Positions 1-41,657 are shown, counted from the first letter of the stretch. The stretch is DNA of 64,000 bases from Vampirovibrionia bacterium (GCA_049314535.1 JBMOEX010000001.1:404-64403); one strand, 5' to 3'. Numbers and translations are program-made. The notes: generated by a model from the sequence alone, not told the origin.

Positions 1-891
1 AGAAAATCCACTCTCTTTATTTGGATCTCTGCCATCGGGCAAAGCGTTATGGTGCAGGGAAATAAATAAATTACATTTATTCTTCTTAGAGATTTTTACA
101 CGTTCACTTAAGCTCTTCTCTGTATCATGGTTTCGAGTAAGTATGGTTTTTACTCCTTGATGATTTAATTCTGCTGCGAGTTTTATAGCTAGGCTTAAAT
201 TTAAATCTTTTTCGAATATGCCTTTAGGAGAGATAGCTCCTATTTGGGAGCCGCCGTGACCAGGGTCTATGCAAACCAAAAGAGGCACTTCACTAAATGC
301 GAACGAGATATTAAGCACTTGATTTTTGAATTTAATTTTATGATTTATTGCGGGCTTTTGAAATTTAATATCGAAGATAATATTTGAGATTTGTTCTATT
401 TTGATTTCAGGGTTTAACTCTGAATAGTGAATCCAGTCTAAATCTTGCTCCATGATACCTAAATCTAATCTATAGTGATAAGCGTTAAATTTTTCTAGTC
501 TATAATCGGGGAGAGCGTTTAATGGAATAGATATATCTTTATTGCTGATTAAGATGCTCTGTAGAATATTGCCTGAACTTGTTCGTTCGGCTACACGCCC
601 ATTGTTTGAATTTGCCTGTTTAGTAAAAGCTCTATAGGGCTGAGCATAGGCTATTGGGTTTGGATTGTTATTGATATTTAAAACACCATAAACAGTGCGA
701 GTAAAGGATTTCCCGTCGATATTGATTTGTATTTTATTTTCACCAAGTTGGAGTTGAATTAGTTTACAGAAATTACCATTTTTCTCAAGTGCGATAGCAG
801 AATCGTTTATTAGGCAAGAGAGATTAGCTGAGCCAAGTATGAAGATCTCTTTGCTATCAGTTTCATGTCCTTCTGGAGGATAGACTAGCAT
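1..891 (-). CDS. N-acetylmuramoyl-L-alanine amidase (Amidase_3 family, AmiC-like), C-terminus runs off the window start
   Basis: Reverse-strand translation from the ATG at 891 gives MLVYPPEGHE...CIDPGHGG...LTRNHD...NLFISLHHNALPDGRD, the amidase_3 catalytic signature. The frame stays open to position 1. It carries an in-frame repeat fragment (GRVAERTSS). Confidence 0.7.
   Translation of the reverse strand, partial: MLVYPPEGHETDSKEIFILGSANLSCLINDSAIALEKNGNFCKLIQLQLGENKIQINIDGKSFTRTVYGVLNINNNPNPIAYAQPYRAFTKQANSNNGRVAERTSSGNILQSILISNKDISIPLNALPDYRLEKFNAYHYRLDLGIMEQDLDWIHYSELNPEIKIEQISNIIFDIKFQKPAINHKIKFKNQVLNISFAFSEVPLLVCIDPGHGGSQIGAISPKGIFEKDLNLSLAIKLAAELNHQGVKTILTRNHDTEKSLSERVKISKKNKCNLFISLHHNALPDGRDPNKESGFS
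575..603. repeat. fragment of the composite element (right end) in-frame inside the amidase CDS
   Basis: gaacttgttcgttcggctacacgccca is identical to 39929..39955. It encodes GRVAERTSS in both proteins. Confidence 0.65.
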
Positions 892-906
892 TGGCAAGCC
901 GTTAAT

Positions 907-1746
907 CTAAAGCCTAAAAGCTCCCCACTTAAATTTCTTCGCAGTCTCTTCGTCATCCTGATTCTCAGCATAACTTCCTTCAGAATTAGAGTTTACTGAA
1001 CTTGTGGTATTCATGCCTTTTAAAACGCTGTTGATGTCATTGATTGAACTATGACCGTTAGCTTGAGCTGTCTGTCTAACAAGCTGCTCGATAAGAGCGT
1101 TTTTGTAACTAGCTTCTCTTTCTCTGAGCTCAAGCTGTTCTTTGAGTTCTTGGATAACTTTCTGGCCTTCTCTAAGACTTCTTTCAGCAGTCTGTTTTTC
1201 GATTAAATTTTCTTGTTGAAGTTGTTTGACTTTGTGGTTGTATTCAATAAGCTCAGCCTTCATTTCATTGCAAAGCTGCTCAGTAGTTTCTTTCCAAGTC
1301 ATTAGCTCTTTTATTTTTCTGAGTAGGGCTTCTTTTTCATTGTGTAAAGCATCAGATTTATCCTGAAAATCCTGTCTAGTATGATCAAAATCTCTTTTAA
1401 ATTTAGATAGCTCTAATTCAGAGAGTTTTAACGCTTCACGCACTGAATCAAGGTCAGAGCCGAGTTGGCGATTTTGTGTTTTTTGCGTCTTAAGCTCTAA
1501 TTTAAGCTCTTCGTAATGACTCTCAACATGTTGATATTTAACTCTTAATGTCTCACTCTCATTAGCTTTGATAACATAGCCGTCCATCAAGGCGCTGAAT
1601 TCAGGAGAAACTTTATGTTCCTGCTTCTCAGCTAATACTTTAAGCTCCGATTTAATATCGCCCAAAAGATTTGAGAATATTTCTTTGCTTTCCTTCTCTT
1701 CGTTAGATAAATAAAGCTGGCTTGTGTTGTGATCTTCAAGAGTCAT
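907..1746 (-). CDS. coiled-coil hypothetical protein directly upstream of the amidase (same strand, 15-nt gap)
   Basis: 279-aa ORF, rich in Glu/Lys/Leu heptad-like sequence, no recognisable catalytic motif. Operon-like spacing with the amidase. Confidence 0.45.
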   Translation of the reverse strand: MTLEDHNTSQLYLSNEEKESKEIFSNLLGDIKSELKVLAEKQEHKVSPEFSALMDGYVIKANESETLRVKYQHVESHYEELKLELKTQKTQNRQLGSDLDSVREALKLSELELSKFKRDFDHTRQDFQDKSDALHNEKEALLRKIKELMTWKETTEQLCNEMKAELIEYNHKVKQLQQENLIEKQTAERSLREGQKVIQELKEQLELREREASYKNALIEQLVRQTAQANGHSSINDINSVLKGMNTTSSVNSNSEGSYAENQDDEETAKKFKWGAFRL

Positions 1747-2483: not shown

Positions 2484-2527
2484 GAGACTGTTTCCAAGCG
2501 CAGAAATTGTAGTTTGGAAACAGTCTC
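2484..2527. repeat. palindromic repeat element copy (GAGAC...GTCTC type), intergenic
   Basis: gagactgtttccaa-gcgcagaaattgtagt-ttggaaacagtctc. It has 14-bp perfect inverted arms, and its loop matches the family core cgcagaaattgGAGT. Confidence 0.6.
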
Positions 2528-2542
2528 AAGAGGTGTTTTCTT

Positions 2543-3982: not shown

Positions 3983-3998
3983 TAGCAAGCTTAATGAT

Positions 3999-4045
3999 GG
4001 GCGTGCAGCCGATGAAAACGCAGAAATTGGAGTTCCGCTACGCCC
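3999..4045. repeat. palindromic repeat element copy at the convergent 3' ends of rluD and rplY
   Basis: gggcgtgcagc-cgatgaaaacgcagaaattggagttcc-gctacgccc. It matches the 121-nt composite element in the FtsX permease (39836..39956). It fills the 67-nt gap between the two stop codons. Confidence 0.6.
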
Positions 4046-4049
4046 TTGA

Positions 4050-14643: not shown

Positions 14644-16563
14644 ATGGTACTTAAAGTAAATTATCAGAAAATTATTAAGTCAAAAGCAAGTATATTTGTA
14701 TCGATATTTTTTGTATCAATATTTTTTTTTAATTCGTTCTGTTTCGCTGCTGAGACTATTCAAGAGCCTGTTCAAGAGACCACTGCACATAAGGCGGGTG
14801 AAAACGCAGAAAATGGAGTTGTGCAGTGGTCTCTAAAGCATAAATTCTTAAAGCTTGATGCATTGCCTTCTAATAAGGCTCCTAAAGCTGATGATAAATT
14901 TAATGTGATTTTAGAGGGCGTGTTGAGGTCAGACAGTGGCTTTCAAAAAGAAAGATTACGAGTTTTTCTAGATGATAGTTTAATTTCTAGTCCTGAAGAT
15001 TTTATAATACAAACTTTAGCGAAGGATAATAGAGTTAGGTTTACTTTTGCCAAGAGTGATTTAACTTATAAAGCTAAAGCAGCTAATTTACTTAAGATAA
15101 AGTTTTTAGACACAGAACTCGCGGGGAATATTTTAGCGGAGAGGGAAATACCTGTTTTTTTTAAACCTCGTGATACTTTTGAGACTAGTCCAGCCTTTGG
15201 TGGTTTTTTTGATACGCAGAAAATAGTATCTCTCAAAGTAGGGCTGTATGATGATGCTGCTTCGCAGCTCACTTCTATCGAATCATCTGAAATCTCTTCT
15301 AAGCTTAATAAACCTCTTAAAGTATCTTCAGATAAGAAGAAATTTCTATTAACTTTCGAGCATGATCCCCAGTATATTCAAGGTGAATCAGAGAGTACTT
15401 TTAGTGAAAAAAACTCAGTACTCCTAAATAATTTAAAAATCTTTAGCACAGATGCTAATGGTAAGAGAACTAACGTGACTAGTAAATTTTCTTTTAAGTT
15501 GAAAGCTAATTCTACTCATAAGTTTGCTGATTTTTCGACTCTGATAACTCAATTTACCACTGTAGGATTGGCTTACCCTGATATTCAGATTTTAGAATTT
15601 GTCGTAGATGTCGAAGATTATTTGAAAAAAATTAATGTCTTTTTCCCACAAGATGCACAAACTCGTTCTGAGAAAAGTATCAAGATAGGTGCTATTCAGA
15701 TCCCTTTAAGTACAGTAAATATTAATAAAAATACTATAGTTTTTTATGAAGATACTACGGCTAATCAATTCAGTATGATTAGTGATCCCGTTATTTTAAC
15801 TTCTTCTTATGCCACTGCTTTAAATTTAACGACCGTCTCTGCTTTTGCTTTTAATACTAAAGATATTGAGAACCACCCTCTAGCAGATTTAGCTAACTTG
15901 AAGCTCAGCATAAATCCCGCTCAGAAAACCTCTCTAGATTTAGTTTATGAGTTAGATAATATAGTAGTTAATCCTTCTGAGGTTCAAATACCAGTTAAGT
16001 TAAAGCTGAATAAAACTAAGGGCTTCTTTGTTAAAAATAGGGATTTAATGAATTTTGGTGAGCTTAAGACACTAGATTTACCTTTTGCTTTAATCGTGAA
16101 AAACTCTCTGGGAGTGGATAATGATTTAAGGGGACGTTTTAATCAGGCTTTAATTTTTAAATTTATAGATAGTCCTCATTTTATAGATAAGGCTTCTGCG
16201 ACAGTTAAGCTTAATAAGAATCCTTTAAACCCTTCTCTGGTACTGAAGTTTGATTATAATAACAGTGCAGATAGTTCTGTTGATGCGCTAGATCTGGTTA
16301 TTAATCTTTTAGATGCTAACTCTAATAAAGTCGCTACTGCTAAATTTGAAAATTTTTCGACTCTTACTAAAAAAGCTAGTGGGATTTTTCAGAAAACTCT
16401 AACTAATGCTGAGTTAGGTGAAGCCTTCTTTGCGAATATTTCTGCTGTTACGAAAGTACAGTTGGAGCTTCATAGAGATCAAGATTATTTAAATAGACTC
16501 GCTTTAGACCCTGCTCAGTATCCTGTTTTGAATGAAGTAGATACTTTGTTGTTGATCTTATAG
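14644..16563 (+). CDS. hypothetical secreted protein carrying an in-frame palindromic element insertion
   Basis: 639 aa. Signal-peptide-like N-terminus (FVSIFFVSIFFFNSFCFAAE). Residues ~41-64 (..ETTAHKAGENAENGVVQWSL..) are encoded by repeat copy 14776..14833. Confidence 0.45.
   Translation: MVLKVNYQKIIKSKASIFVSIFFVSIFFFNSFCFAAETIQEPVQETTAHKAGENAENGVVQWSLKHKFLKLDALPSNKAPKADDKFNVILEGVLRSDSGFQKERLRVFLDDSLISSPEDFIIQTLAKDNRVRFTFAKSDLTYKAKAANLLKIKFLDTELAGNILAEREIPVFFKPRDTFETSPAFGGFFDTQKIVSLKVGLYDDAASQLTSIESSEISSKLNKPLKVSSDKKKFLLTFEHDPQYIQGESESTFSEKNSVLLNNLKIFSTDANGKRTNVTSKFSFKLKANSTHKFADFSTLITQFTTVGLAYPDIQILEFVVDVEDYLKKINVFFPQDAQTRSEKSIKIGAIQIPLSTVNINKNTIVFYEDTTANQFSMISDPVILTSSYATALNLTTVSAFAFNTKDIENHPLADLANLKLSINPAQKTSLDLVYELDNIVVNPSEVQIPVKLKLNKTKGFFVKNRDLMNFGELKTLDLPFALIVKNSLGVDNDLRGRFNQALIFKFIDSPHFIDKASATVKLNKNPLNPSLVLKFDYNNSADSSVDALDLVINLLDANSNKVATAKFENFSTLTKKASGIFQKTLTNAELGEAFFANISAVTKVQLELHRDQDYLNRLALDPAQYPVLNEVDTLLLIL
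14776..14833. repeat. palindromic repeat element copy (GAGACC...GGTCTC type), in-frame inside a CDS
   Basis: gagaccactgcaca-taaggcgggtgaaaacgcagaaaatggagt-tgtgcagtggtctc. 14-bp perfect terminal inverted repeats. Confidence 0.7.
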
Positions 16564-18204: not shown

Positions 18205-20264
18205 TGCCGATAAGAATACTATCTGATTTGATTGCTAATCAAATTGCTGCAGGTGAAGTAGTAGAAGGGGCTTTATCTGTTGTTAAAGAATTAGTCGAAA
18301 ACAGTATAGATGCTGGAGCTAATTCGATTGCGGTGGAGCTTAGTAAACAGCTTAGATACATTAAAGTTTCGGATAATGGTTCTGGTATTCCAGTAAATGA
18401 ATTACCTTTAGCTTTCACTCGGCATGCGACTAGTAAGATTACAGAAATAGAGGATTTATTTTCTATAGACTCTAATGGCTTTAGAGGAGAGGCTTTAGCG
18501 AGTATAGCTTCTGTAAGTAGAGTTACCTGTATTAGTAAAACTAGATCTGAAGCTGATGCTACAAAATTTTATATAGATGCTGATAGAGAAGAAGTATCCT
18601 CTGTGGGTGCTGGAGTCGGTACTAGTATAGAGGTAGATGAGCTTTTTTATAATACTCCAGCTCGTTTGAAGTTTATGAAGTCTGTGGTAAAAGAGAAGCA
18701 GAATATTATAGATCTGTTAAAAGCCTTTTCTATATTCAATCCTAATGTTTCTTTTGAACTTTTAATTGATGGAAAAACTCAGTTTAAGGTTTTAAAAGAT
18801 CAGCCTTTTAAAGTTACAGCACGTGAATTATTTGGCAAATCTGTATTTGAGCATTTAATTAATTTCGAATATAATACTGGAGCGATTAAAGTTTCAGGCT
18901 ATTTATCAGCTCCAGAGCTGAATCGTAGCGACAAGCGATATTATTTTACTGCGGTAAATAAGCGTATTATTAAATGTAATACGATAAGATCTGCTGTGGA
19001 TAGGGTTTATAAAGATTTATTACCTGTAAAGAAATATCCTATTATCATTATTAATTTAGAGCTGCCGAGCTCAGACGTCGACGTTAATGTACATCCGCGT
19101 AAACAAGAAGTTAAATACTTACACGCTAATGAAGTTTATAGAACTTTAATCACTGCAATTTCTACTGATTTATCTGAGTATTTTTATAAATGTTCAGAAT
19201 ATAAACAGTTAGAGATTTTCAATCCAGTACTAGCAGATTTAGAACCTCATGCTGATTCGGATCTTAGTGGTGAGGAGCGTCCTAGCCTTTTTTCTGAAAG
19301 AGAATATACACCTTCAATACTGAGGAGGACGAATGACCGCAGTGTAATTTCCAGCGATGCCGAGCCTGCAACATCAATTGAAGATTGCGAGCAGTCCCCT
19401 TTGGAGACTGGGGTGAGTGAAAGTGGCATCATGCATCAGTCTCGCTGTGACAGTGATAAAACTTTATCTTTCCTTACAAGGTTCCCATCTATTGAGGTGA
19501 ATTTTATAGAAGGAGATCTTTCTGATTACCTTGAGGGTATTAGCTTTGATGAGCGAGAAGAGAGTTTTAAAATCTTCAGTGCTAATGCTGATCAGTCTTT
19601 TGGGTTTTTAGTAACAGGTAAATTATTTCCAGTCGATGAAAGTATACAGGATTTATATTTAGACTCTTTAGAAGTATTTACGAAGAAGCTGTTAGAGACT
19701 AAATCTGAAGATAATTTACTGTATGCTGAATCTAATTCTTTAAAGGAGTTAGCCATAATGACGGGAGGTACTTCTTTAGATAAACAAGCTGCAACTAAAC
19801 TACTTTCTAAAAAGAAACCAGCGACTAAACTTTCAAGACCTAGTATAAAACCTCCTTTAGGACAGCTTGAAGAGATTTGGGCTAGAGATAATTATTCATG
19901 TGTATACTGTGCTAAAGCACTTATTCATCCTAAGGTGGTGAAGCAGGCTTTACTTAGAGCTGAATCTGAGTCAATCTCTTGGCTGAATGCACGCAATGAA
20001 AAAATTAGCGAGCATTTGATTGAAGCACATAAAGCTTCCTTTGATCATCATTTGCCAGCTTCTAAATTTGCGGTCTTGAATTTAGACTCTCGTAATCTTT
20101 TTGCTACTTGCAGGGAATGTAATCAGAGAAAATCTGCAAGTTTAGCTAGTAAAACTTGGACACCACGGCAAGTAAATTCTTGGGCTAATTTTTCAATTAA
20201 TAATCCCTTAGAGCTAGCTGGAGTAAAATTTATATCAGCGTTAGAGGCGATTTATGATAATTAA
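18204..20264 (+). CDS. mutL: DNA mismatch repair protein MutL with an atypical C-terminal HNH nuclease domain
   Basis: GHKL ATPase N-terminus (..ELVENSIDAGA.., ..DNGSGI.., ..GFRGEAL..) and transducer domain (..VNVHPRKQEV..). The C-terminus has CVYCAK...DHHLPASKF...NLFATCRECNQRKS, which is an HNH motif. An in-frame repeat insert lies in the linker. Confidence 0.8.
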   Translation: MPIRILSDLIANQIAAGEVVEGALSVVKELVENSIDAGANSIAVELSKQLRYIKVSDNGSGIPVNELPLAFTRHATSKITEIEDLFSIDSNGFRGEALASIASVSRVTCISKTRSEADATKFYIDADREEVSSVGAGVGTSIEVDELFYNTPARLKFMKSVVKEKQNIIDLLKAFSIFNPNVSFELLIDGKTQFKVLKDQPFKVTARELFGKSVFEHLINFEYNTGAIKVSGYLSAPELNRSDKRYYFTAVNKRIIKCNTIRSAVDRVYKDLLPVKKYPIIIINLELPSSDVDVNVHPRKQEVKYLHANEVYRTLITAISTDLSEYFYKCSEYKQLEIFNPVLADLEPHADSDLSGEERPSLFSEREYTPSILRRTNDRSVISSDAEPATSIEDCEQSPLETGVSESGIMHQSRCDSDKTLSFLTRFPSIEVNFIEGDLSDYLEGISFDEREESFKIFSANADQSFGFLVTGKLFPVDESIQDLYLDSLEVFTKKLLETKSEDNLLYAESNSLKELAIMTGGTSLDKQAATKLLSKKKPATKLSRPSIKPPLGQLEEIWARDNYSCVYCAKALIHPKVVKQALLRAESESISWLNARNEKISEHLIEAHKASFDHHLPASKFAVLNLDSRNLFATCRECNQRKSASLASKTWTPRQVNSWANFSINNPLELAGVKFISALEAIYDN
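19320..19443. repeat. mosaic repeat element insertion inside the mutL linker region
   Basis: ctgaggaggacgaatgaccgcagtgta (19320..19346) matches the FtsX-permease composite element, where it encodes LRRTNDR(N/S)V. A further hairpin follows at 19404..19443: gagactgg...cagtctc. Confidence 0.6.
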
Positions 20265-23200
20265 GCTAATAGCCTATCTTTGTTTTTTTTTAAGTGGCTT
20301 TGCTGCACTGGTACATGAGCTTTCTTGGTCACGTATTTTAAAGCAGGTTTTTATTTCTGAATCACTAAGCACGGCTTTAGTTTTAATAATTTTTTTTGGT
20401 GGCATCGCTATAGGTTCTTATTTAGCTGCAGCTTTAAGTAAATTCTTTTATCCAGCTAAGAGTTCCTATGCCTCTTTGTTTATTTTTAGTATTTTAAATT
20501 TAGTTTTAGCTTTTTTAACTTATTTAACTGGTAATTTCTTTAATCCAGAGCATTTATTTTCTTCATTAATGTTAGCCCCTATTTCCATACTCTTGGGTAG
20601 CTTATTTCCATTATTGAGTAATTTCTATGTTGCGTATCGTGAAAATAATACTGAGAAATCTAATACAGTCTCCAAAGTATATTTTGTGAATACCTTTGCT
20701 GGATTGCTTGCTATTTTTTTTGTGATTTTCTTTGCTTTTAAACAGCTTGGTTTAAAGCTTACCCTGCATAATCTTGCGATTCTACATCTTTCTATATTTA
20801 TTCTAAGCTTTTTGCCATCTCTATTTAATATCAAGGCTGTAGTCGTTGAGATTTTTGAGTCGATTAAAATATTTACTTTAAATCTTAGTTTACATAGTCC
20901 TAAAAATCAATTATCAAAAGCTTTCGATGACGATAATGTAGAAGATGAAACTCTTTTGAATATTGAGACTCAAGGATCTAAGGTATTGCTGTGGCTTAGC
21001 TTTGCCTTTGGTTTTATTTTATTGGGGCTTGAGCTTGTCTGGATGAGAGCTTTTAGTCTTATTCTAGCTAGTTCAGTTTACTCTTTTGCTATGGTTCTTG
21101 CGGCAGTTATATTTGGTCTTGCTTTAGGAACTTTTATATTCTACTTAGTAGCTAAACCTCTTAAACTCAGTCAGGGAAATAGTTTTGAAGATGATATTGA
21201 GCATATTAATTGGCTTGTGTTGCTTTTGGCAGCCTTAATTTTCATCAGTTCATTTAGCTTTAAATCCCTTACAGGTACTTATTTATATTTAATAGATTCG
21301 GTGGGATTTTTATTGAATGATTTTCATCGAGAGGATTTATATAAAACTGCTTTGAGTTTTATGAAATTTATACTAGCTGGTATAGTTGTGGTGCCAGTTT
21401 CTGCGACTATAGCTTTTGCTAGTACCTATTTATTACAGATATTTACCTACAGTGATTATCTGAACGATAGATATAGAGTGCTTAATGCAGGTGCTAATAT
21501 CGGTAAAGTTTTTTCTATTAATACTCTTGGTGGTATTCTTGGTTCTTTTGTTACAGTTTTCTTTTTTATTCCTTCGCTAGATGGTGGTCTTAATCAGTGT
21601 TTCCTGATATTTAATTTAATAGCTTTACTTACTTTAGCGATTACTCTTAGTTTTTCTAAAGAGAAACAGTATTTTTTATTTTTTATTGCAGCTTTGTGTT
21701 TCATAGCTTTGATTCTTTTAAAGCCGAATTTTATTACAGCTAGAACAGCTAGTGGAGCAGAGCTCTATTATGCATTAAAGTACAGAGGTGAGCAAGGATA
21801 TTATGTAGATGACACTCAGGAAGAGGTTTTGTTTCATCAAGATGGGCTCTATTCTACAGTAACCGTTATTAAAGATAGTTTCGCTAATACTATTTATTTG
21901 AAAAATAATGCAAAAGTTGAAGCTGGTATCCCAATTGAGGATGAGATATTCTCAGCAGCTGATATGCAAACGCAAGTTTTACTAGGTGTCGCTCCTAAGT
22001 ATTTTAAAGATGAGTTTAATAATATTTTACTTATTGGAATGGGCTCTGGGATTACTTTAGACTCACTTGCGATGATTAGTGGTGATGCTAAACTATGCGT
22101 GGCGGAGATAGAGGATCTAGTCTTTAAGGCGGCTGATAAATTCTTTTCTCAGGCTTGGCAAGCTATTCCAGATAAGAAAATTACTAGATATAGGGGTAAT
22201 GCTCGCTCGCTGATTAAATCATCTAAAGAAAAATATGATTTAATCGTTTCACAGCCTTCTGATCCTTGGCTATCAGCAGATATGTTTACTGATGAATTCT
22301 GGAAATTAGCTCATAGTAAGCTTTCTAAAGATGGAATTTTTGTCCAGTGGTTGCAGCTTTATTCTTTAGAGCCTAAGTATCTTTTACTGACTTTAAATAC
22401 CCTGAAGCATAATTTTAAACATTTACTAGTAATTCATCCGCCACGTACTGCTGAAATTATAATACTTGCTAGTGATAAGGATTTTCGCTTTAGAGATTTT
22501 AATGTAGATAAATATCCTTATTTGAAAACCAGTCTGAATCGAGTTTCTATACATAATTCAGCAGACTTTATGGCAAATATTATGCTTGCACCGAAAGATG
22601 TGAAAAATTTATTAGTAGTTGAAGTTCCTCGCCTGGATTTGCCTGCACCGATGTTGAATAATTCTAATAATTCTTTACTTGAGTTTCATACAGCTGAAAA
22701 TTTTTATAAGTTTTCAGAAACTATTAATCAAAATTTACAGGCATTAACATCTTATGTATCTTTCGAACATATTTTATCTTTAGCTAAATATAATTCTGAG
22801 TCTGAGAAAATAGCTTTAGTTCAGGCTTTAAGAGCTAATTACCAAAAGAGTTTATCAGGCCAGTCTTTAAAAACACGGGCTTCTTTTTATAAGAATAAGC
22901 TTTATACACAGTCTTTAAGTTCTGGGACTATTCCCTTGCTAAGTGAGGAGGATGAACTGGAAGATACTTTGGTTTTAAAAACTGCTTCAGAGGCTGATGC
23001 TGAGTATAAATTAAAAGAGGATCAGTTAATAAAAGAAAAATTATTAAAGGAAGAGGCTTTGAAAAAGCAGTTGGAGATTGATTCTAATTTATCGGAAGAA
23101 GAGAAGAAAAAAAGAAAAGAGCTTGAGGCAGAGGAAGATATAGAAGTTCAAGATATTGAAATAGTGCATAAACCACTAAATATTTCATCTGCTGATGAAA

Positions 23201-23595
23201 AGAACTATAAGAGTCTTTTAGGGATTGGGGTTAAGAATTTCGAGCAGGGTTTTTATGACGATGCTGAAAAGAATTTTAGAACCGCATTGAAAATAGATCC
23301 TAATTTGGATCAAGCTTATTTATATTTAGCTCAGATAAAGCTTTTAATGAAGGATGATAACAAGTTTCTGGAATATATAAATTATTGCCTCAGAATAAAT
23401 CCTTTTAACGTAAAAGCTCTGTATCTAGCTGCTGATTATAATTACAGCTTTGCATCATTAGCTAAGGCGACTTTTTATGTAGATAGATTATTCATGGATA
23501 CTGACTATAAAACTAAACTAACGGCTGATGAGATAAATAAACTCATGAAGATTAGGAAGAAGCTAGCAGAGATTTTAGAGAAAAATCACCCTTAG
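20254..23595 (+). CDS. large polytopic membrane protein with spermidine-synthase-like domain and C-terminal TPR repeats
   Basis: 1113 aa, with at least 12 hydrophobic segments. A SpeE-like motif (..DLIVSQPSDPW..) sits mid-protein. A Lys/Glu-rich coiled region and TPR-like repeats lie at the C-terminus. 11-nt overlap with mutL. Confidence 0.65.
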   Translation: MIIKLIAYLCFFLSGFAALVHELSWSRILKQVFISESLSTALVLIIFFGGIAIGSYLAAALSKFFYPAKSSYASLFIFSILNLVLAFLTYLTGNFFNPEHLFSSLMLAPISILLGSLFPLLSNFYVAYRENNTEKSNTVSKVYFVNTFAGLLAIFFVIFFAFKQLGLKLTLHNLAILHLSIFILSFLPSLFNIKAVVVEIFESIKIFTLNLSLHSPKNQLSKAFDDDNVEDETLLNIETQGSKVLLWLSFAFGFILLGLELVWMRAFSLILASSVYSFAMVLAAVIFGLALGTFIFYLVAKPLKLSQGNSFEDDIEHINWLVLLLAALIFISSFSFKSLTGTYLYLIDSVGFLLNDFHREDLYKTALSFMKFILAGIVVVPVSATIAFASTYLLQIFTYSDYLNDRYRVLNAGANIGKVFSINTLGGILGSFVTVFFFIPSLDGGLNQCFLIFNLIALLTLAITLSFSKEKQYFLFFIAALCFIALILLKPNFITARTASGAELYYALKYRGEQGYYVDDTQEEVLFHQDGLYSTVTVIKDSFANTIYLKNNAKVEAGIPIEDEIFSAADMQTQVLLGVAPKYFKDEFNNILLIGMGSGITLDSLAMISGDAKLCVAEIEDLVFKAADKFFSQAWQAIPDKKITRYRGNARSLIKSSKEKYDLIVSQPSDPWLSADMFTDEFWKLAHSKLSKDGIFVQWLQLYSLEPKYLLLTLNTLKHNFKHLLVIHPPRTAEIIILASDKDFRFRDFNVDKYPYLKTSLNRVSIHNSADFMANIMLAPKDVKNLLVVEVPRLDLPAPMLNNSNNSLLEFHTAENFYKFSETINQNLQALTSYVSFEHILSLAKYNSESEKIALVQALRANYQKSLSGQSLKTRASFYKNKLYTQSLSSGTIPLLSEEDELEDTLVLKTASEADAEYKLKEDQLIKEKLLKEEALKKQLEIDSNLSEEEKKKRKELEAEEDIEVQDIEIVHKPLNISSADEKNYKSLLGIGVKNFEQGFYDDAEKNFRTALKIDPNLDQAYLYLAQIKLLMKDDNKFLEYINYCLRINPFNVKALYLAADYNYSFASLAKATFYVDRLFMDTDYKTKLTADEINKLMKIRKKLAEILEKNHP

Positions 23596-23690
23596 AGACC
23601 ACTGCACAACTCCATTTTCTGCGTTTTCGTTGTGCAGCGGTCTCTCATGCACAACGTGCAGTTTCTGCGTTTTCGTTTTCTGCGTTTTGA
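23595..23690. repeat. palindromic element plus degenerate tandem sub-repeats between the convergent speE-like and clpC 3' ends
   Basis: gagaccactgcacaac-tccattttctgcgttttc-gttgtgcagcggtctc at 23595..23644, overlapping the TAG stop. Then come further copies of the ttctgcgttttcg unit (..gtttctgcgttttcgttttctgcgttttg..). Confidence 0.7.
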
Positions 23691-23699: not shown

Positions 23700-26429
23700 T
23701 TACCCAGCTCTATTACCAACAGGCTCACCGCCACCAGTCTCAGAACCTACTCCACCACCTGTTCCGTTAAGACCAAGAGCTTTCTTTTTCTTTTTAATAG
23801 TAGATCTTTTTAGTTCTTCCTGTTTTTCTGGAGGTAGTTTACCTGTAACTCTAAATTTAATTTGAGCTTTAACTAAAGCTTGTCTCTTATCAGCATCTTT
23901 AGTCTCTTCAGTTACATCCTCTGGTTTTTCATAAATTTTATCTTTAGGAAACTCTGCTTCGAAAATTACATAGGCTTCGATCTCGTCTCCATCAGTATGT
24001 TCGCCATTGATGAGAGAATCTGAAATCGGATCTTCAAGAAGCTTCTGTATAGTTCTCTTCATCGGTCTTGCACCATAAGTTCTGTTATAACCTTCAGTCG
24101 AGACTTTATCTTTAACTTCATCTGTAAGAGTAATAGTCATACCTTTCTCTTTCAGTCTGCTTTCTAGATCTTTTTTCATGATATCGACTATCTTACGCAT
24201 ATCAGTACGAGTTAAGTGTTTAAATATAACGATATCATCAAGCCTGTTCAAGAACTCCGGTCTAAATGCACGTTTCATTTCTTCCATTACGGCATCTTTC
24301 ATGCGTTTATATTTTTCATCTTCAGCTTGCTCTTCAGTATTAGAAGCGAAGAAACCTACACCAAAATCACTGTTCATGCGCTGAGCACCTACGTTAGAGG
24401 TCATGATAATAATAGTATTTTTAAAGCTAACTTTACGTCCTTTACTATCAGTTAAATGACCGTCATCTAACATCTGTAACATAACGTTAAATACGTCAGG
24501 GTGAGCCTTCTCTATTTCATCGAAAAGTACTACGCTGTAAGGCTTTCTACGAACGGCTTCAGTTAATTGACCGCCATCGCCGTAACCAACATATCCAGGA
24601 GGTGAACCTATAAGCTTACTTACAGTGTGCTTTTCCATGTACTCAGACATGTCCACTCTGATTAAATTATCAGCACTGCCGAAATAATAATCAGCAAGAA
24701 CTTTAGCTAGCTCAGTCTTACCTACACCAGTAGGACCGCAGAACACAAAAGAACCTATCGGTCTTTCTGGATTTTTCAATCCCGCTCTAGCTCTTCTAAT
24801 AGCTTTAGAAACAGCTGTAACAGCTGAGTCTTGACCTATAATTTTGCCATGAAGAGTATCTTCCATCTGTCTTAGCTTGTCATTCTCTCCAGCTTTTAAA
24901 TCACCAACAGGAATCCCAGTCCAGCTAGCCACTATTTCAGCTATTTCTTCCTCGCCGACAGTAGGTTTATTTTTTTCTTGCTCTCTTCTCCACTCTTCTT
25001 GGAGACTACGAATTTTTTCTCTAATATTATTTTCTTGATCTCTGAGCTGTGAAGCTTTTTCAAATTCTTGCTGACGAATAGCTTCTTCTTTTTGTCTTGA
25101 AATAGTAACTAATTCATCTTCGTATTTTTTAGCTTCTGGTGGTAAACCACTAGCCTTAAGTCTTACTCGAGAACTAGCTTCATCTATAAGATCTATAGCT
25201 TTATCTGGTAAATGTCTATCGAAAATATATCTATCAGATAATCTAGCAGCAGCTTCTACAGCAGCATCAGTGATAATTAGGCGATGATGCTCTTCATATT
25301 TCTGTCTTAGACCAATAATGATCTGAATAGTCTCTTCTACAGAAGGAGAGTCTATAATTACAGGCTGAAAGCGTCTCTCTAGAGCAGCATCTCTTTCTAT
25401 ATGCTTACGATATTCTTCTAAAGTAGTAGTACCGATACATTGAAGCTCTCCACGAGCGAGTGCTGGTTTTAAAATATTTGCTGCATCTATAGCACCTTCA
25501 GCTGCTCCAGCTCCTATTAAAGTATGTAGCTCATCTATGACTAACATCATATTTCCAGCAGTACGGATTTCATCCATTATTTTTTTAAGTCTTTCTTCAA
25601 ATTCGCCTCTATATTTAGTTCCAGCGACTAAAAGACCTAAATCTAAAACGATTAATTTTTTACCAACTAAAATATCTGGTACATCATTCGCTACTATTTT
25701 TTGAGCTAAGCCCTCAGCTACAGCAGTTTTACCTACACCAGGTTCACCGATTAATACAGGATTATTCTTGGTTCTTCTACCTAATATTTGAATTACTCTT
25801 TCTATTTCCTCAGCACGCCCAATAACAGGATCTAATCTACCTTCGGCAGCAGCTAAAGTGAGATCTGTACCAAATTCATCTAAAGTAGGTGTTCTAGTTC
25901 TAGTATTTTGGTTAGCGTTTTTATTAGAACCCACTCCGAGTAAAGAATTATTAGTACTACTACCAGAACCACCAGTAGCAGTAGAGTTAGAACCTGATTC
26001 ACCAAGTAATCTAATAATATGCTGTCTAACTTTAGCTAAATCTACACCTAAATTATCTAAAACTCTCGCAGCGACTCCTTCACCTTCTCTGATTAAGCCT
26101 AGTAAAAGGTGCTCCGTACCTATATAGTTATGTCCGAACTGCCTAGCTTCATCCCAGCTTAATTCTAAAACCCATTTAGCTCTAGGTGTAAATGGAATTT
26201 CAACTGCTACGAAACCTGAGCCTCTACCTATAATTTTTTCCACTTCGATGCGGGCGTCTTTTAAGTTCACTCCCATGGATTTTAGGGTTTTAGCTGCTAC
26301 ACCAGTTCCTTCTCCGATAAGTCCGAGCAATATCTGCTCGGTACCAACGAAATTATGACCAAGTCTTCTAGCTTCTTCTTGAGCTAGCATTATGACTTTT
26401 ATCGCCTTCTCTGTAAATCTTTCAAACAT
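23700..26429 (-). CDS. clpC: ATP-dependent Clp protease ATP-binding subunit ClpC, with low-complexity linker insertion and extended C-terminal tail
   Basis: 909 aa, with two N-terminal Clp_N repeats. Both AAA+ modules carry Walker A/B motifs ([16 protein letters not shown]). A UVR-like middle domain is present. The C-terminal extension of about 75 aa is Lys-rich then Gly-rich. Confidence 0.9.
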
Positions 26430-29582: not shown

Positions 29583-32500
29583 TACTAATGAGATTCGCAG
29601 AGCTTGGATAAATTTTTTTGAAAAAGACTGTGGTCTAGAGCATAAGTTTTACAAAAGTGCTTCTTTAGTACCTGATAATCCTACTCTGCTTTTAAACTCT
29701 GCTGGTATGGTACCTTTCATCCCATACTTTATAGGAGCGACTAAAAGACCAGAGCCACCGAGGGCTGTAAGTATACAGAAGTGTGCTCGTGTCGGTGGTA
29801 AAGACAGCGATTTAAGTAATATCGGTTATACGCAGAGGCATCATAGTTTTTTTGAGATGTTGGGGAATTTTTCTTTTGGTAATTACTTTAAACAAGAAGT
29901 TATTCCTATGGCTTGGAAATTCGTTACTGAAGTTTTAGGACTTCCATCTGAAAAGCTTTATGTATCAGTTTTTGAAGGTGATGATACTAGACCTTTTGAT
30001 GAAGAATCTTATAATCTTTGGGCTGATATTTTTAAAAATGTCTATCCTGAAAAAGAAATCGCTGAGCATATTTGGAAGTTAACAGCGAAGGATAATTTTT
30101 GGGGACCGCCAGGTCCTACTGGTCCATGCGGTCCTTGTAGTGAAATTTATTATGATCTTGGGGAGCATATTCTAGATAAGGATGATAGATATATAGAGAT
30201 CTGGAATCTAGTGTTTATGCAGTTTGAAAAGCTAGATGACGGCAGCTTAAAGCCTCTGGAGCATAAGAATATAGATACTGGTGCTGGTTTAGAGCGTATA
30301 GCGATGGTTTTGCAGGGTGTTAATAATACTTTTGAAATAGATGAGCTTGCGGAGCTGGTTTCTGCGACGAAGGCTGAGGTTTTTAAAGGTGCGGTTGGGG
30401 CTGTTGTTGGTGAGGCTGTTAATCAAAATGCAGAAATAGCAGTTCAGCAGCAGTCTCATGAGGCATATTTTAAAATTATCGTAGATCACTTACGCTGTGC
30501 ATGCTTTTTAATAGCTGATGGTGTTAGACCTAGTAATGTGAGTAGAGGTTATGTGCTTAGAATGTTGATTAGAAGAGCGGCACGCTTTTTGCATAAACTA
30601 GGTTGTAATTCTGAACCGCTTTTATATAAGTTATCAGAGAAGGCTGTAGATATTTATGGAGCTTTTTATGATGAGCTGGTTTCGAGTAAAGAGCTTATAG
30701 CAAGCGTGCTTAGAAAAGAGGAAGAGCTTTTTGCTAAGACGGTTGAGAATGGGTTAGAAAAAATAGATTTGCTCATTATTCGGACTATTGATCAGAAAAT
30801 TACAAATATTTCTGTAGGTAAGAAAGTCGTTGAAGGTGAGATAGTTGATCCTTCACCTCGGCAAAACAGGATGGCTTTGCAGTATGAGACGTTCCTTGAA
30901 GAAAGAGAGATTGTTTGTAAGCTTTCAGGTGATCTTTTGTTTAATATATATTCAACTTATGGCTTACCGATTGAAATAATAGAGGACCAAGTAGATTCTT
31001 GGAATAAATGTTTAAATTATGAAGGTGAACTTGACGACGCTCCAGAATTTAAAGATATTTCAGAGTTTGTGCACGAAGCTATAAGGGGTGATCGCGGAGC
31101 GCTAAAAAGCTTTGGCTCTAAAAAATTTACACTCAAAATCGATTATGAAGGCTACGAAAAAGCTCGTGAAGAGCATTCTAAAGCTTCTTCTACTTCTGCC
31201 TTTAACGTCTCCGTAACTTCAGAAAAATCACTATCACAGCTTTTACAGGCTTATCCTAAGACAGAGTTTTTAGGTTACGCTCAGGAAGAGACTGAAGCTG
31301 AGATTTTAATGATTTTAGATAAGGATAAAAATCCTATTTCTGAAATTAATTTCTCGGATATTTTAGCTCAGGGAAATTCTAATTCAAGTTCAGAAAAACT
31401 TGTTTCTGTTGAAACTAAATTAGAGACCGCAAGTGGACTTGTGCAGCGGTCTCCTGAAGATTATTACGAATTTTTTCTTTTACTGAATAAGACTACTTTT
31501 TATGCTGAGTCTGGTGGTCAAGTATCTGATTCAGGATATATTATTAAAGACCTTGCAGCGAATACTTTACTTGGGCAGAGTGGTTTAAAGACGGAGACCG
31601 AAAATGAAGCGATGCAACAGTCTCAGATCCAGTTTCCAGATGATAATCTGAAAATTAATATCTCACATAATTTACTTTTTAGTGTGAAAGATGTAAAAGC
31701 CATAGATGGTCGTATCTTACATAAACTAGTCATAGAGCTGCCTTGTGATTCTATTTCTAAAGACACGCAGGCAGTTTTAAAAACTGGTGATTTGATTAAA
31801 GCGCAGGTAAATTCTAAACAGCGCCTGCTTACTAAGTTTCATCATAGCTCTTGTCATTTACTGCAAGCTGCTTTAAGGAAGGTGTTAGGAAATACAGTTA
31901 CTCAAGCGGGTTCTCTAGTCTCTGCGGAATATACACGTTTTGATTTCAACTATGAATCAGCTCTTAGTAAAGAGCAGTTAAATGTTGTGGAAAAACAGAT
32001 GAATGATTGGGTGAAGGCTGCTTTGCCTGTAACTACTATAGAGACTAGCTTTGATGAGGCTGTTAAATTAGGAGCTTTAGCATTTTTTGAAGATAAGTAT
32101 GAAGATAATGTCAGAGTCTTGAAAATAGCGAATGAATCGGAAGTGGCTTCAGTAGAACTCTGTGGCGGAACGCATGTGTCAAATACAGCCGAAATAGCTC
32201 AAGTGAAAATAGCTAGTGAGTCTTCAGTTGCTAGTGGAGTTAGACGTATAAAACTCTTTGTAAATGAGTGTGCTGAAAGATTTATTAAGGAAGAGCAGTT
32301 AAAGCAGTCTGATATAGAAGAACTAGAGAAGCGTAAAGAGCTTGAAAAGCAGTTAGAGAATGAGAAAAAAGCAGAAAAGTTACGCCTGCTAAATGCTAAA
32401 ACAGATGAGTTTTTAAAACTGGCGTTTGAAAAAGACGGGAGAACCTTTATTATTGCTGATCTTAATCAAATTGTTGATTTTACACTAGAAGCTGATGTCT

Positions 32501-37679: not shown

Positions 37680-37682
37680 AGA

Positions 37683-38876: not shown

Positions 38877-41657
38877 CTAAAATGCTTCATCCTTTTCTAA
38901 TTCCCTTGGTGAGACTTTGGATTGAGTCTGGCTTGGGAAGATCGCTGCGATTAAGGCTGCTGTTACTGATATTAGAGTTGCAAGCAGTATACTCTTAAAA
39001 TCGAGTGAGAAATTAATATCCCAACCGAAGGAGCGATGATTTATAACAAAAATCATTACCCAAGCGGAAGCAATGCCAAGTGGTATCGCAAAGATACTGG
39101 ATAGTAATCCCATTGTAAAGGCTTGTAAGGAAATTGATCTTTGAATGTCTTGCTTAGACATTCCTAAAGCTTTTAAAAGAGCGAATTCTTTTTCTCTTTC
39201 AATAATCAAGGATAGCAAAGCACTGAATATGCCAAAAGCGGCTACTATCACTGCGATGATCTTTAATGCTGATGTTACTCTAAATGTTCTATCGAAAATC
39301 TCTAAAGATTCTTTGAGAAGTTCTTTGTTTGAGCGTATATCAAAGAAAGTCGGAGAAAGGCTTTCTTCAGCAGCTTTGATTTTATAAGCTTCGATATAAG
39401 TTTTTATTTTATCTAGTTTTGGATTATTTTTTTTATTCGTAAGTAGGGACCACTGCACAACTCCATTTTCTGCGTTTTCGTTGTCATTTGTTTTTTTTAC
39501 TTCTGTGGATTCTTTTAGGAAAATACCAAGCGAGCTTAAATTAGGATCTTCCCACAGTGAGCGATATAGGTCTTGATGCATCATTAAAAGACCTTGATCA
39601 GAGCTGTAATCATTAAATATTCCCAAGATGGTAAATGTCTGTAATCCTTTGTCTGTTTGAAGTTTCACTCGATCATTGCATCTAACTTTATGCTTGTAGG
39701 CATAGGGAGCAGAAGCAATAAGACCTTGGCCTTTATCAAATTTATTCCAAATATCTTTAGTAGATTCTTTGAAAGTAAAAGAATTTTTTACGATAGGTAG
39801 GGAATTTATGCTCGCCACTCTAGTTGAGCCATATTGGGCGTGTAGCGGAACTCCAATTTCTGCGTTTTCGTCGTCCTCATGATCCTCATGTACTCCCAGT
39901 ACATTCCGGTCATTCGTCCTCCTCAGCCTTGAACTTGTTCGTTCGGCTACACGCCCATATTCACCAATTACATCTCGCAAGTGATATTCACTAATACCTA
40001 TTATGTCTTCAGTCTGAAAGGTTTTGGTGAATTCTATTACTTTATTATTCAATGTTATATGGTTACGATGTGACACTTGTTTGGGAGTGGATATGTAAAT
40101 GTCTGCAAATAAAGAAGCTGAAAGCCAGTCTTCTACAGTATTTCGGAAACTATTGATTGCGATATCGAGTGAAAGGTAGAGAGAGATAGCTACTGTCAGT
40201 GCTGCAATCGCTATAGCGTTACGGCTAAGATTCTTTTTAAGACTTCTTAGTGATATTAAAGAAGCTAATCCAAAAGTGTTTCTATAAAGCGGCTCTAAAA
40301 TGTAATCGCTATGATAGGTGAGAAATGGTATGAAGCAGCTAAATCCAATAACCATTATAAATAAGCCAAAAAAGCAAGCTGAGATATTTTTTTCAAAAAT
40401 CAGAAACAGTAATAGTGATAAAGAAATTAAAACTAAGCCTGCAATATTTAATTTTGGAAGATATTTTTTGACTGTCTCTTCAATGTCTATATTCTTTATA
40501 ACTTTAGTCACCGGACTGTTACTAGCTTCGTAAGCAGGTACTAGCGCTGATAACAATGCCGCAAATACACCTATTAATCCAGCTTTGAGAAATGTGATAT
40601 TACTGATATGTATCTGGCTTACTTGTAAAACAAAATAAAGATCATTAATAGTTCTTACGATAAAGCTTAAAAGAACGTTAGCGAGTAGGTAGCCTAATCC
40701 GATGCCTATCAGTGAACCGATTATTGCAAATAGCAGTGATTCAAATATTATTAAAGAAAAAATTTCTTTTTGACTGACGCCGATTGTTCTGAGAAAGCCA
40801 AATATTTTGCGACGCTGAAGAACCGCAAATGTCATAGTGTTATAAATTAAAAAGATGCCAACCAGCATAGCTAAAAGACTTAGAGCACTAAGATTAGCAT
40901 TGAAGGATTTAGTCATGGATTCTTGAGCTTGATTGCGTTCTGAGGATTTAATTAAAACTAGACTAGGATCTATAGCAAAGAGTATATTTTTTAACTCATT
41001 CTCTTCTTCTGGCTTCAGAATTAAATCTATTCTGCTTATATAGTTTTGTAATTTTAATAATTCTTGAGCTGTAGATATATCCATGAACAGCAAGTTATCA
41101 AGGGACGTACTAGCTGGGGCGTTATCTGAATCAATTAGACCATAAAGTTTTAGGCGATAGGTTTCGTCATTTTGATCTATCAGTAAAGGATCTCCAGGCA
41201 GAATTCTAAATTTCTCTGCAGTATGCTTTGTGGTGAAAAAACCTTCTAGCTTATTAATAAAAGCTGATGGATTATATTGCTTTCTGGAATTGAACTCTTT
41301 AAAAATACTTCTAAAAGCTATATCACTGAAGGGATCTATACCAATAACCTTGAGCAAACGATTATTCTTAGTGACGAAACCTTCTATAAGAGGAGTTACT
41401 GTGAGTTTATATTTATTCTCTAAATTGACAACCAGCTCTTCGTCTATTTTCCCTCCATTATTAATAATATGGTGAGTAGCTTTGCCATTTATAATTTCAG
41501 TGGAAAGCTCAAACGATTTTTTAGCAGATTCTATCGCTAAGTCTGTGGCTGTGATAATTGCGACAGAAAGAACTATGCCAGTTATTAAAGAAGCGAATTG
41601 CCAGATGTTTTTAGTTAAGAATCTAATACTTGAAAGATATAGTGATTTAGTTAACAA
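38877..41657 (-). CDS. ABC transporter permease with two FtsX domains (MacB/YbbP-like), carrying two in-frame repeat insertions
   Basis: 926 aa. Two FtsX-type 4-TM modules with large extracytoplasmic domains. Inserted peptides are ..NENAENGVVQWSL.. and ..YGRVAERTSSRLRRTNDRNVLGVHEDHEDDENAEIGVPLHAQYG.. . Confidence 0.75.
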   Translation of the reverse strand: MLTKSLYLSSIRFLTKNIWQFASLITGIVLSVAIITATDLAIESAKKSFELSTEIINGKATHHIINNGGKIDEELVVNLENKYKLTVTPLIEGFVTKNNRLLKVIGIDPFSDIAFRSIFKEFNSRKQYNPSAFINKLEGFFTTKHTAEKFRILPGDPLLIDQNDETYRLKLYGLIDSDNAPASTSLDNLLFMDISTAQELLKLQNYISRIDLILKPEEENELKNILFAIDPSLVLIKSSERNQAQESMTKSFNANLSALSLLAMLVGIFLIYNTMTFAVLQRRKIFGFLRTIGVSQKEIFSLIIFESLLFAIIGSLIGIGLGYLLANVLLSFIVRTINDLYFVLQVSQIHISNITFLKAGLIGVFAALLSALVPAYEASNSPVTKVIKNIDIEETVKKYLPKLNIAGLVLISLSLLLFLIFEKNISACFFGLFIMVIGFSCFIPFLTYHSDYILEPLYRNTFGLASLISLRSLKKNLSRNAIAIAALTVAISLYLSLDIAINSFRNTVEDWLSASLFADIYISTPKQVSHRNHITLNNKVIEFTKTFQTEDIIGISEYHLRDVIGEYGRVAERTSSRLRRTNDRNVLGVHEDHEDDENAEIGVPLHAQYGSTRVASINSLPIVKNSFTFKESTKDIWNKFDKGQGLIASAPYAYKHKVRCNDRVKLQTDKGLQTFTILGIFNDYSSDQGLLMMHQDLYRSLWEDPNLSSLGIFLKESTEVKKTNDNENAENGVVQWSLLTNKKNNPKLDKIKTYIEAYKIKAAEESLSPTFFDIRSNKELLKESLEIFDRTFRVTSALKIIAVIVAAFGIFSALLSLIIEREKEFALLKALGMSKQDIQRSISLQAFTMGLLSSIFAIPLGIASAWVMIFVINHRSFGWDINFSLDFKSILLATLISVTAALIAAIFPSQTQSKVSPRELEKDEAF
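39446..39486. repeat. partial palindromic element copy (left arm plus core), in-frame in the permease CDS
   Basis: gggaccactgcacaactccattttctgcgttttcgttgtc matches the 23595 copy apart from one arm mismatch and loss of the right arm. Confidence 0.65.
39836..39956. repeat. 121-nt composite palindromic element with perfect 11-bp terminal inverted repeats, in-frame in the permease CDS
   Basis: Terminal inverted repeats gggcgtgtagc and gctacacgccc are perfect. Internal segments recur at 4010..4036 (core), 19320..19346 (MutL) and 575..603 (amidase). Confidence 0.7.

Follow-up and report, generated by a model that had tools for sequence, protein, structure and literature searches.

The DNA analysed here is a stretch of 64,000 nucleotides (the window) from Vampirovibrionia bacterium (GCA_049314535.1 JBMOEX010000001.1:404-64403). 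It comes from a freshwater non-photosynthetic cyanobacterium of the Melainabacteria/Caenarcaniphilales and is 99.4% identical to ENA scaffold ERZ28594090 KRAE22-1 scaffold_36. Copies of a palindromic element, 121 nt long when intact, are dispersed through the window, both between genes and within them. The Pfam matches of the host genes are to Amidase_3, MutL, AlaS, an FtsX-type permease and an RsmE-like methyltransferase, and a further host, ORF 14644-16563, had no Pfam match. No transposase, reverse transcriptase or integrase was found in the 64-kb window when essentially all ORFs of at least 100 aa were searched against Pfam.

The original prediction had described a family of short mosaic elements resembling the Rickettsia palindromic elements (RPEs), and the family is real: every coordinate listed for it holds pieces of one family by core motif, repeat finding and profile. 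Searching with the core CGCAGAAAATGGAGTT, with up to two mismatches allowed, gave six occurrences in the window against 0.07 expected from shuffles, and unbiased repeat finding recovered the same loci. The core had been thought common to all copies; it is present in six, and the copies at 575, 19320, 31423 and 31594 are the left end, middle and stems of the same 121-nt element. A family profile was made from 70 full-length copies and run with nhmmer over the window. It found 13 copies or fragments, at 574-602(-), 2496-2529(+), 3996-4046(+), 14788-14835(+), 19301-19349(+), 23593-23652(-), 23647-23677(-), 30422-30460(+), 31430-31456(+), 31599-31625(+), 39444-39485(-), 39833-39959(-) and 51868-51905(+). 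The matches at 31430 and 31599 in AlaS were weak (E = 4-22), the remaining ones having E ≤ 0.02; the two AlaS sites (31423 and 31594) were accepted as family because they carry GAGACC...GGTCTC palindromes and lie at ortholog indels.

One genome per species was also scanned, in 8-kb stretches, with the exact 21-mer GAAAACGCAGAAAWTGGAGTT. More than 104 stretches carried the 21-mer, so that further copies do exist elsewhere, all of them in five metagenome-assembled genomes (MAGs) labelled Melainabacteria, Caenarcaniphilales or Cyanobacteria and one labelled 'Proteobacteria'. In 790 kb, nhmmer found 242 copies or fragments of the 121-nt element. The only intact element of the window, at 39836-39956(-), is 90-96% identical to copies in all five MAGs. 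Over syntenic genes the MAG RFQS01 ('Proteobacteria bacterium WB4_1_1465'; L005, L007 and other loci) shares 93% nucleotide identity with the window, and it holds the same 121-nt elements; its 'Proteobacteria' label looks wrong.

Full-length copies begin and end with outer arms that are variable, 13-17 nt long and complementary to each other, and that enclose a conserved interior. The interior, AACGAACAAGTTCAAGGCTGAGGAGGACGAATGACCGCAGTGTAC-(loop of 4-6 nt)-GTACATGAGGATCATGAGGACGACGAAAACGCAGAAA(A/T)TGGAGTT, includes a small inner hairpin with a variable loop. The whole unit is predicted to fold into one long hairpin, and the intact copy does so stably (-51.3 kcal/mol, z = -8.8, for the sense strand; -44.3 kcal/mol, z = -7.4, for the antisense strand). 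Rfam 15 gave no match at the gathering score over the whole window, and the best match of the intact copy in a permissive Rfam search was sX9, with 16 bits against a 44-bit cutoff (E = 0.74). Across the 70 copies, 94% of the cells in the outer 13-17 bp are complementary. RNAalifold predicted 35 pairs, 18 of them with double-sided changes; on this structure 97% of cells are paired and 226 cells hold double changes, against 62 ± 8 after shuffling and at most 70 in slid controls. The variation falls nearly all in the outer 13 pairs (two or three pair types each) and in two pairs of the inner hairpin, which covaries at columns 61/71 and 63/69, and the interior is nearly invariant.

The two sets of terminal repeats described originally turned out to be at least four, which differ by strictly compensatory changes: GAGAC (19 copies), GGGCG (18), GGCAC (15) and GGGAC (9), each present in four to five genomes. 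Inner-hairpin variants are shuffled among these arm types, and the core's A/T variant goes with the GAGAC type (18 of 19 copies). This is the arm pattern that inverted terminal repeats of several master lineages would give. Unique paired compensatory arm changes were also found in single copies (e.g. L082, L025, L038/L044), one variant being present at two loci of one genome.

The intact window element carries the arms GGGCGTGTAGCC...GGCTACACGCCC and lies in-frame in the gene of the FtsX-type permease, to which it adds 42 aa (YGRVAERTSSRLRRTNDRNVLGVHEDHEDDENAEIGVPLHAQ). It is bounded by AATAT on both sides, at 39831-39835 and 39957-39961. The same gene contains, also in-frame, a right-end remnant of the GAGAC/GGGAC subfamily at 39444-39485(-) (NENAENGVVQWS; nhmmer E = 6e-8). 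A left-end remnant at 574-602(-), identical to 39930-39958, lies in-frame in the gene of the N-acetylmuramoyl-L-alanine amidase (Amidase_3) and encodes GRVAERTSS. Near the N-terminus of the secreted-protein ORF 14644-16563, a 58-nt internally deleted copy, GAGACCACTGCAC...GTGCAGTGGTCTC, is read in-frame at 14776-14835(+) (ETTAHKAGENAENGVVQWS); it is also found at the orthologous site in MAG CANHDW. The copy in the MutL gene (Pfam MutL domains) is decayed but nearly full-length, having lost its left arm; it is longer than first listed, extending over about 19301-19400(+), and encodes LRRTNDRSV ... IEDCEQS. The AlaS gene contains three remnants: a decayed right end at 30422-30460(+) (NQNAEIAVQQQS; E = 5e-4), and two composed of arms only, at 31423-31456(+) (ETASGLVQRS) and 31594-31625(+) (ETENEAMQQS). 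A further decayed right end, at 51868-51905(+) (E = 0.015), lies in the RsmE-like RNA methyltransferase gene 51258-52070 (Methyltrans_RNA), where the in-frame call was worked out from the coordinates. Each of the ten copies that lie inside window genes has the sense orientation and uses one and the same element frame; two of the ten, AlaS 30422-30460 and RsmE-like 51868-51905, were missing from the original list.

Between genes, an internally deleted copy with both arms, GAGACTGTTTCCAA...TTGGAAACAGTCTC, was found at 2484-2527(+), between ORF 2543-2917 and the small ORF 2191-2403, which from its signature we take to be rpmE (L31). Another, GGGCGTGCAGC...GCTACGCCC at 3996-4046(+), lies where a pseudouridine synthase gene (+) and the L25/Ctc gene (-) converge, and its orthologous copy in L007 is of different length. 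Two adjacent partial copies at 23593-23677(-), comprising 23593-23652 with both arms and 23647-23677, lie between convergent genes, and the TAG stop of ORF 20254-23595 abuts the first of them. The suspected copy in the clpC tail corresponds to this pair, which is located 3' of the ClpC stop at 23700 and thus outside the coding sequence.

Direct repeats of 5 nt flank the element. At least four of the five positions match in 32 of the 70 full-length copies, and in 16 the match is perfect, against 4.7% and 0.7% of re-paired controls, respectively. The signal is seen only at offset 0 and is lost when the boundary is shifted by one base. The duplicated pentamers are AT-rich with the logo N-W-N-W-W, position 2 being A or T in 31 of 32. 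Comparison with scaffold L107, whose flanks are 95-97% identical to those of the window, revealed an empty site: L107 reads ...GGTG AATAT GGCTC..., with a single AATAT, where the window reads ...GGTG AATAT[121 nt]AATAT GGCTC..., a difference of 126 nt or 42 aa. A second clean pair was found in L085 (filled) and L005 (empty). At another site L078 contains the full unit, of which L036 and L077 retain just the right end, 37 nt long and joined at an ACGA microhomology. The presence of a full unit and a 37-nt piece at orthologous sites shows that the short copies of the window are deletion remnants. The sizes of 27-121 nt given originally are indeed seen, and represent not different elements but one decaying 121-nt unit, which together with the terminal-repeat subfamilies accounts for its 'mosaic' appearance.

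The 121 nt of the element and the 5 nt of the duplication make 126 nt, or 42 codons, so that an insertion never shifts the downstream frame; with this footprint the element survives within housekeeping genes, much as RPEs do. Two of the six frames through the unit, +0 and -0, are free of stops. Frame +0 gives a charged, hydrophilic peptide of 40 aa, GRVAERTSSRLRRTNDRSVLRVHEDHEDDENAEIGV..., written G(R/T)VAERTSSRLRRTNDRSVLRVHEDHEDDENAEIGV..., of which the first half is basic and the second half acidic; frame -0 gives ...LQFLRFRRPHDPHVPAVHCGHSSSSALNLFV.... The sharing of element-derived peptides by unrelated proteins was verified. Orientation was counted in ORFs of at least 120 aa, and frame in stop-free stretches of at least 200 codons. 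Half of the copies (121/242) are inside ORFs, all 121 in sense orientation, and 110 of the 118 copies within stop-free stretches use frame +0. This frame is open in all 32 full-length intragenic copies versus 27 of 38 full-length intergenic ones. The 121 intergenic copies cluster at gene 3' ends; they adjoin these in the same orientation in 68 cases and in the opposite one in 61, and gene 5' ends in 33 and 25 cases; 38 are at convergent, 29 at tandem and 2 at divergent junctions. As the restriction to sense and frame +0 exists only in genes and intergenic orientation is unbiased, selection rather than insertion bias appears to filter the copies. The restriction in phase further speaks for translation, and not skipping, of the intragenic copies.

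An exhaustive search with the 40-aa peptide found 82 of 1.84 billion cluster representatives, 48-628 aa in length, some with two to four copies. In a word-indexed protein search, 48 clusters came up, made up of 'hypothetical proteins' of 33-70 aa in MAGs of Melainabacteria and Vampirovibrionia; they were rejected as host proteins, being only short mis-called ORFs from intergenic copies. Proteins P0241-P0288 (NCBI and JGI records) are such intergenic copies, annotated as hypothetical proteins of 33-70 aa.

Comparison with orthologs confirmed that the segments in FtsX and AlaS are clean insertions. The window permease has 926 aa and its closest orthologs, P0122-P0125, have 884 aa and are 98% identical over aligned positions, with a single 42-aa gap exactly at YGRVAERTSS...PLHAQ. 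The second remnant of the permease (39444-39485) falls in a hypervariable loop, one that differs among all relatives, and only the closest orthologs share it. AlaS shortens with growing distance, from 1081 aa in the window to 979-1013, 944 and about 865-900 aa, and each of its three element sites is a lineage-specific indel that P0029 and distant orthologs lack. At the site of ETASGLVQRS, P0003 has ETANGVVQRS; at that of ETENEAMQQS, the 98%-identical P0001 has RMTNDRKVQEP, which indicates very recent turnover in a permissive loop. Two more inserts of about 45-54 aa, at AlaS nt 30769-30930 and 30997-31137, are found only in the window lineage (window, P0001 and P0002). They were dropped as family members, being unlike the 121-nt element and having no repeat or peptide match in the examined sequences; the 1081 aa of AlaS thus comprise element remnants and these two inserts.

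An AlphaFold2 model of the permease was built from a 72-sequence alignment (pLDDT 77.8, pTM 0.75). Its only long low-confidence segments, residues 569-607 (pLDDT about 27-39) and 718-744, are the two element-derived stretches. The 569-607 insert is placed between strands 552-567 and 608-617, and both segments fall between regular secondary-structure elements. In the model, then, the insert would be compatible with the host fold as a surface loop; the copies in AlaS likewise sit in loops prone to indels.

A candidate for the source of transposase was found outside the window. A de novo repeat screen, run after masking the family, detected a repeated end, GGCACTGTTGCT(C/T)AAT(C/T)AAAATC..., at contig ends in three MAGs and within a long contig of a fourth; location at contig ends is typical of a multi-copy insertion sequence (IS) that breaks assemblies. 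The first repeat screen (at least 300 bp) had missed it because at most 262 nt survives at contig ends. A scan of metagenomes gave one complete copy of 1153 bp, with ends GGCACTGTTGC... and ...GCAACAGTCTCC, at L112 5644-6796. Most copies are cut short at the ends of contigs, and further ends are at L026 7263-8000, L001 3-141, L002 1-262, L052 2-236, L074 1-262, L059 2602-2695, L063 1-94, L068 142-259 and L069 3511-3649. The ORFs of the L112 copy correspond to DUF772 (111 aa) and DDE_Tnp_1 (187 aa), and the best NCBIfam matches were IS1182 and IS5, all below cutoffs. Over 11-12 nt, anchored at the very end, the IS termini GGCACTGTTGC are identical with the arms of subfamily B of the 121-nt element, and other IS ends begin GGGAC or GGAGAC, like other subfamilies of the element. 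Among the 5-nt flanks of 11 IS ends, all 11 have A or T at position 2 and 9 have it at position 4, the same preference as in the duplications of the element. On the strength of these termini and flanks, trans-mobilisation of the 121-nt element by this IS family seems somewhat better than an even chance. It was also considered whether separated left and right ends of the element might border an autonomous copy; the handful of candidates proved to be unconnected fragments within ordinary genes.

The element has the features of a MITE (miniature inverted-repeat transposable element): it is 121 nt long, its only long open frames are 40-aa peptides without transposase similarity, it has terminal inverted repeats and a fixed 5-bp duplication, and its dispersed copies show presence/absence polymorphism. 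We therefore favour, with a probability of about 0.85, a family of non-autonomous DNA transposons (MITEs) restricted to a freshwater Melainabacteria (Caenarcaniphilales) clade. The original idea of a selfish, RPE-like but non-Rickettsial palindrome is supported and is refined by the 5-bp duplication and the candidate parent IS. The element is apparently undescribed, RPE-like in behaviour but not an RPE; no description of the family was found in the literature on Melainabacteria, Caenarcaniphilales and in-frame palindromic elements, of which coverage was incomplete, so that this absence is no proof. The element inserts into AT-rich pentamers (N-W-N-W-W), duplicating 5 bp and adding 126 nt each time; insertion appears blind to orientation, and the transposase is likely supplied by the 1.15-kb IS5/IS1182-like IS of the same genomes. 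Selection would then purge nearly all insertions in genes except sense, in-phase ones in tolerant loops, where the frame +0 peptide would behave as a disordered surface loop, and outside genes would purge insertions in promoter regions, leaving copies at 3' ends. Microhomology-mediated deletions, internal or one-sided and in-frame, would finally shrink copies to the 'mosaic' remnants of 27-60 nt that prevail in the window.

Several observations weigh against this reading. Transposition itself was not observed, and ascertainment of the 104 loci via the right-arm 21-mer biases both the densities and the shares of the fragment types. In the complete IS copy the transposase ORF is split; this copy is flanked by ATTAC and TAATA with no recognisable 5-bp duplication, and has no orthologous empty site among the examined loci. 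In local alignments of the IS subterminal regions with the interior of the MITE, similarity ends after the terminal 11-12 nt, so that the MITE is no simple derivative of the L112 copy by internal deletion. No IS partner was seen for the GGGCGTGTAGC (GGGCG) subfamily. The antisense frame -0 is open too, yet it is used in none of the 121 intragenic copies, which peptide-level selection plausibly accounts for. Simple sequence-specific recognition of terminal repeats does not predict compensatory arm changes in single copies, and these, like the combination of variable tips and a fixed interior, are still not fully explained.

Two other explanations give the hairpin a part. In one, the copies are functional structured RNA or DNA hairpins (REP-like mRNA stabilisers, attenuators, terminators or small RNAs) kept by selection, and mobility is secondary. 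The strong covariation described above speaks for it, as do a sense fold about 8 kcal/mol more stable than the antisense one, a G.U pair that 63 of the 70 copies have at columns 58/74, outer-helix wobbles numbering 43 in sense versus 25, enrichment at convergent 3' ends, and a weak terminator-like hairpin with T-tract on the antisense strand of two window copies. However, complementary arms are also expected of transposon terminal inverted repeats, and relatedness can beat column shuffles without any structure. The wobble bias and the fixed G.U pair amount to weak evidence of selection at the RNA level. Relative to neighbouring genes the intergenic copies are unbiased in orientation, half of all copies are in coding loops of unrelated proteins, no Rfam family matches, and copies are present or absent between genomes with 95-98% identical flanks and decay quickly to unfoldable fragments, all of which makes this explanation improbable. 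In the other, the element moves by means of its folded hairpin and not of its terminal-repeat sequence, through a single-stranded or cruciform intermediate or through intrastrand templated repair of the arms, for example, an arrangement that would be mechanistically uncommon for a MITE. Here it is telling that the terminal 13 bp are the most variable part and the interior nearly invariant, the reverse of typical MITEs, that 13 of 15 outer-helix pairs have double-sided changes with two or three pair types each, that the inner hairpin covaries too, and that of the compensatory variants unique to single copies one had propagated to L038 and L044 of one genome. Set against this are a conventional DDE IS with matching termini that vary likewise (GGCAC, GGGAC, GGAGAC), a fixed 5-bp duplication that fits the staggered cuts of a DDE transposase, and discrete arm subfamilies in four to five genomes that fit a few master lineages better than continuous hairpin-driven change. 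We regard hairpin-dependent mobility as doubtful. It is similarly a tentative idea that hypervariable yet complementary tips around a near-invariant interior reflect a folded hairpin required for transposition or maintenance, combined with shaping as a 'codon-compatible' parasite that has a 126-nt footprint and, in one frame, a harmless peptide of balanced charge; if true, gene interiors would be the main niche of the element in a compact genome, and its target duplication, empty sites and partner IS would offer a tractable model for the origin and spread of RPE-type protein-coding palindromes.

Two further explanations fare worse against the MITE reading. The identical peptides in unrelated proteins and the almost exclusive use of one frame could reflect a selected peptide repeat or domain that recombination or domain shuffling has spread, but half of the copies are intergenic, nucleotide identity is 90-96% across unrelated genes, the copies are palindromic and bear 5-bp target duplications, and the peptide is modelled as a low-confidence loop and found in so few representatives; such a protein module is very improbable. 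An artefact of metagenome assembly or chimerism deserves mention because all data are from MAGs or metagenome scaffolds and repeats do break assemblies, as the IS ends at contig ends illustrate. Nevertheless, assemblies made independently in different projects carry the same copies at orthologous positions, P0121 recurs unchanged on two scaffolds of separate samples, and copies are embedded in otherwise collinear, intact ORFs, so that an artefact is hardly credible.

Among known systems, RPEs are short palindromic repeats in unrelated ORFs that are read in-frame (Ogata et al. 2000, 2002, as summarised in PMC10969869 and PMC3184786). Like the window element they are palindromes of about 105-150 nt with many copies and a lineage-restricted distribution, about half of the copies are in unrelated housekeeping ORFs, and the conserved in-frame peptide is compatible with fold and function. 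They are set apart by host and, as far as could be judged, by sequence: their hosts are Alphaproteobacteria, whereas exact-pattern matches of the window element fall only in a Melainabacteria/Caenarcaniphilales clade of the Cyanobacteriota, and for the window element one can see a target duplication of 5 bp, empty sites and a candidate for the parent IS. As judged by likeness of architecture, the closest structural analogue is bcr1 of the Bacillus cereus group, which is MITE-like, about 120-155 nt long, flanked by 5-bp direct repeats, not conserved in distribution between relatives and kept as a long stem-loop by compensatory changes (Okstad 2004, Klevan 2007, as reviewed in PMC3184786). In contrast, bcr1 is intergenic and transcribed according to the review, which does not mention systematic in-frame colonisation of genes, and its host and sequence differ (PMC3184786). 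The closest cyanobacterial analogue as an IS-MITE pair is Nezha/ISNpu3; it and the Anabaena MITEs share IS-matching terminal repeats, direct repeats, hairpins, empty and filled sites and occasional ORF fusions (PMC3184786). These are mostly intergenic, in photosynthetic cyanobacteria, and for none of them is there a report of a combined length of element and duplication divisible by three, or of a sense bias inside genes such as 121:0 (PMC3184786).

Tn3-derived TIMEs also have a 5-bp AT-rich target duplication, and AATAT has been reported as the duplication of a Tn3-family transposon (PMC4133298). TIMEs, however, are 262 bp long and usually single-copy (PMC4133298), and the candidate partner here is of DDE_Tnp_1 type and not of the Tn3 family. 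A Tn3-family origin was rejected, as the element ends aligned globally with the 38-bp Tn3/Tn21 inverted repeats no better than shuffles did, which is a weak test. REP/BIME sequences with RAYT are likewise palindromic, high-copy and enriched at gene 3' ends, but are 20-40 nt long, extragenic and without target duplication (PMC3733652), and bear a GTAG/CGTC tag, whereas the window element has 121 nt and a 5-bp duplication and is half intragenic.

A 2024 review still singles out RPEs for in-frame colonisation (PMC10969869). The colonisation of housekeeping genes by in-frame palindromes, treated as a peculiarity of Rickettsia, is now seen in an unrelated free-living freshwater lineage, and the fixed 5-bp duplication, 42-codon footprint, empty sites and candidate IS open the origin and selective filtering of 'protein-coding palindromes' to direct testing. 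In annotation, copies between genes are mis-called as proteins and host proteins are inflated (AlaS has 1081 aa against about 870 aa in distant relatives). The insertion polymorphisms are possible strain markers for lake Melainabacteria.

Some features of the element and other repeats were recorded in addition. Element positions of about 36-52 (AAGGCTGAGGAGGACGAATGACC; e.g. window 39905-39921(-)) belong to the conserved interior and contain a strong Shine-Dalgarno-like GGAGG followed 4 nt later by ATG, in element frame +1 and so out of frame with the host gene. At window 4020-4038(-) and 23656-23670(+), the antisense element core forms a short hairpin followed by GTTTTCGT, with a weak intrinsic-terminator-like score; the L25/Ctc gene and ORF 20254-23595 have these sites immediately downstream of them. 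The same MAGs hold a second MITE-like family, about 100 nt long and unrelated to the first (ATACCATTCTGG...CAAGCAGTCCGAAACTAGGACTGCGCAAGG...AAAATGGTATTTTGGTAT), at L094 5003-5103 and 7407-7509, L089 2901-3001, L035 4545-4643 and L052 6290-6395, and no copy was seen in the window. A 32-nt motif, GTAAGTGGCTCATATCCGAGCAAGCAGAAATA, recurs across MAGs, often near copies of the 121-nt element (L008 7412-7442, L012 1607-1638, L019 7121-7152, L027 3795-3825, L040 3014-3045, L059 1296-1327 and L097 6507-6538). A right-end remnant of the 121-nt element, LEDDENAEIGVRQHC, lies in-frame in a type I restriction R-subunit (HsdR) gene at L108 3615-3670 (IMG/VR UViG 3300042866_002883), a viral-classified contig that may be a misclassified chromosomal island of the same lineage. 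Finally, L094 1750-2164 holds a tandem array of 3.3 full-length copies with a period of 127 nt and 96% matches, located between ORFs of 562 aa and 345 aa.

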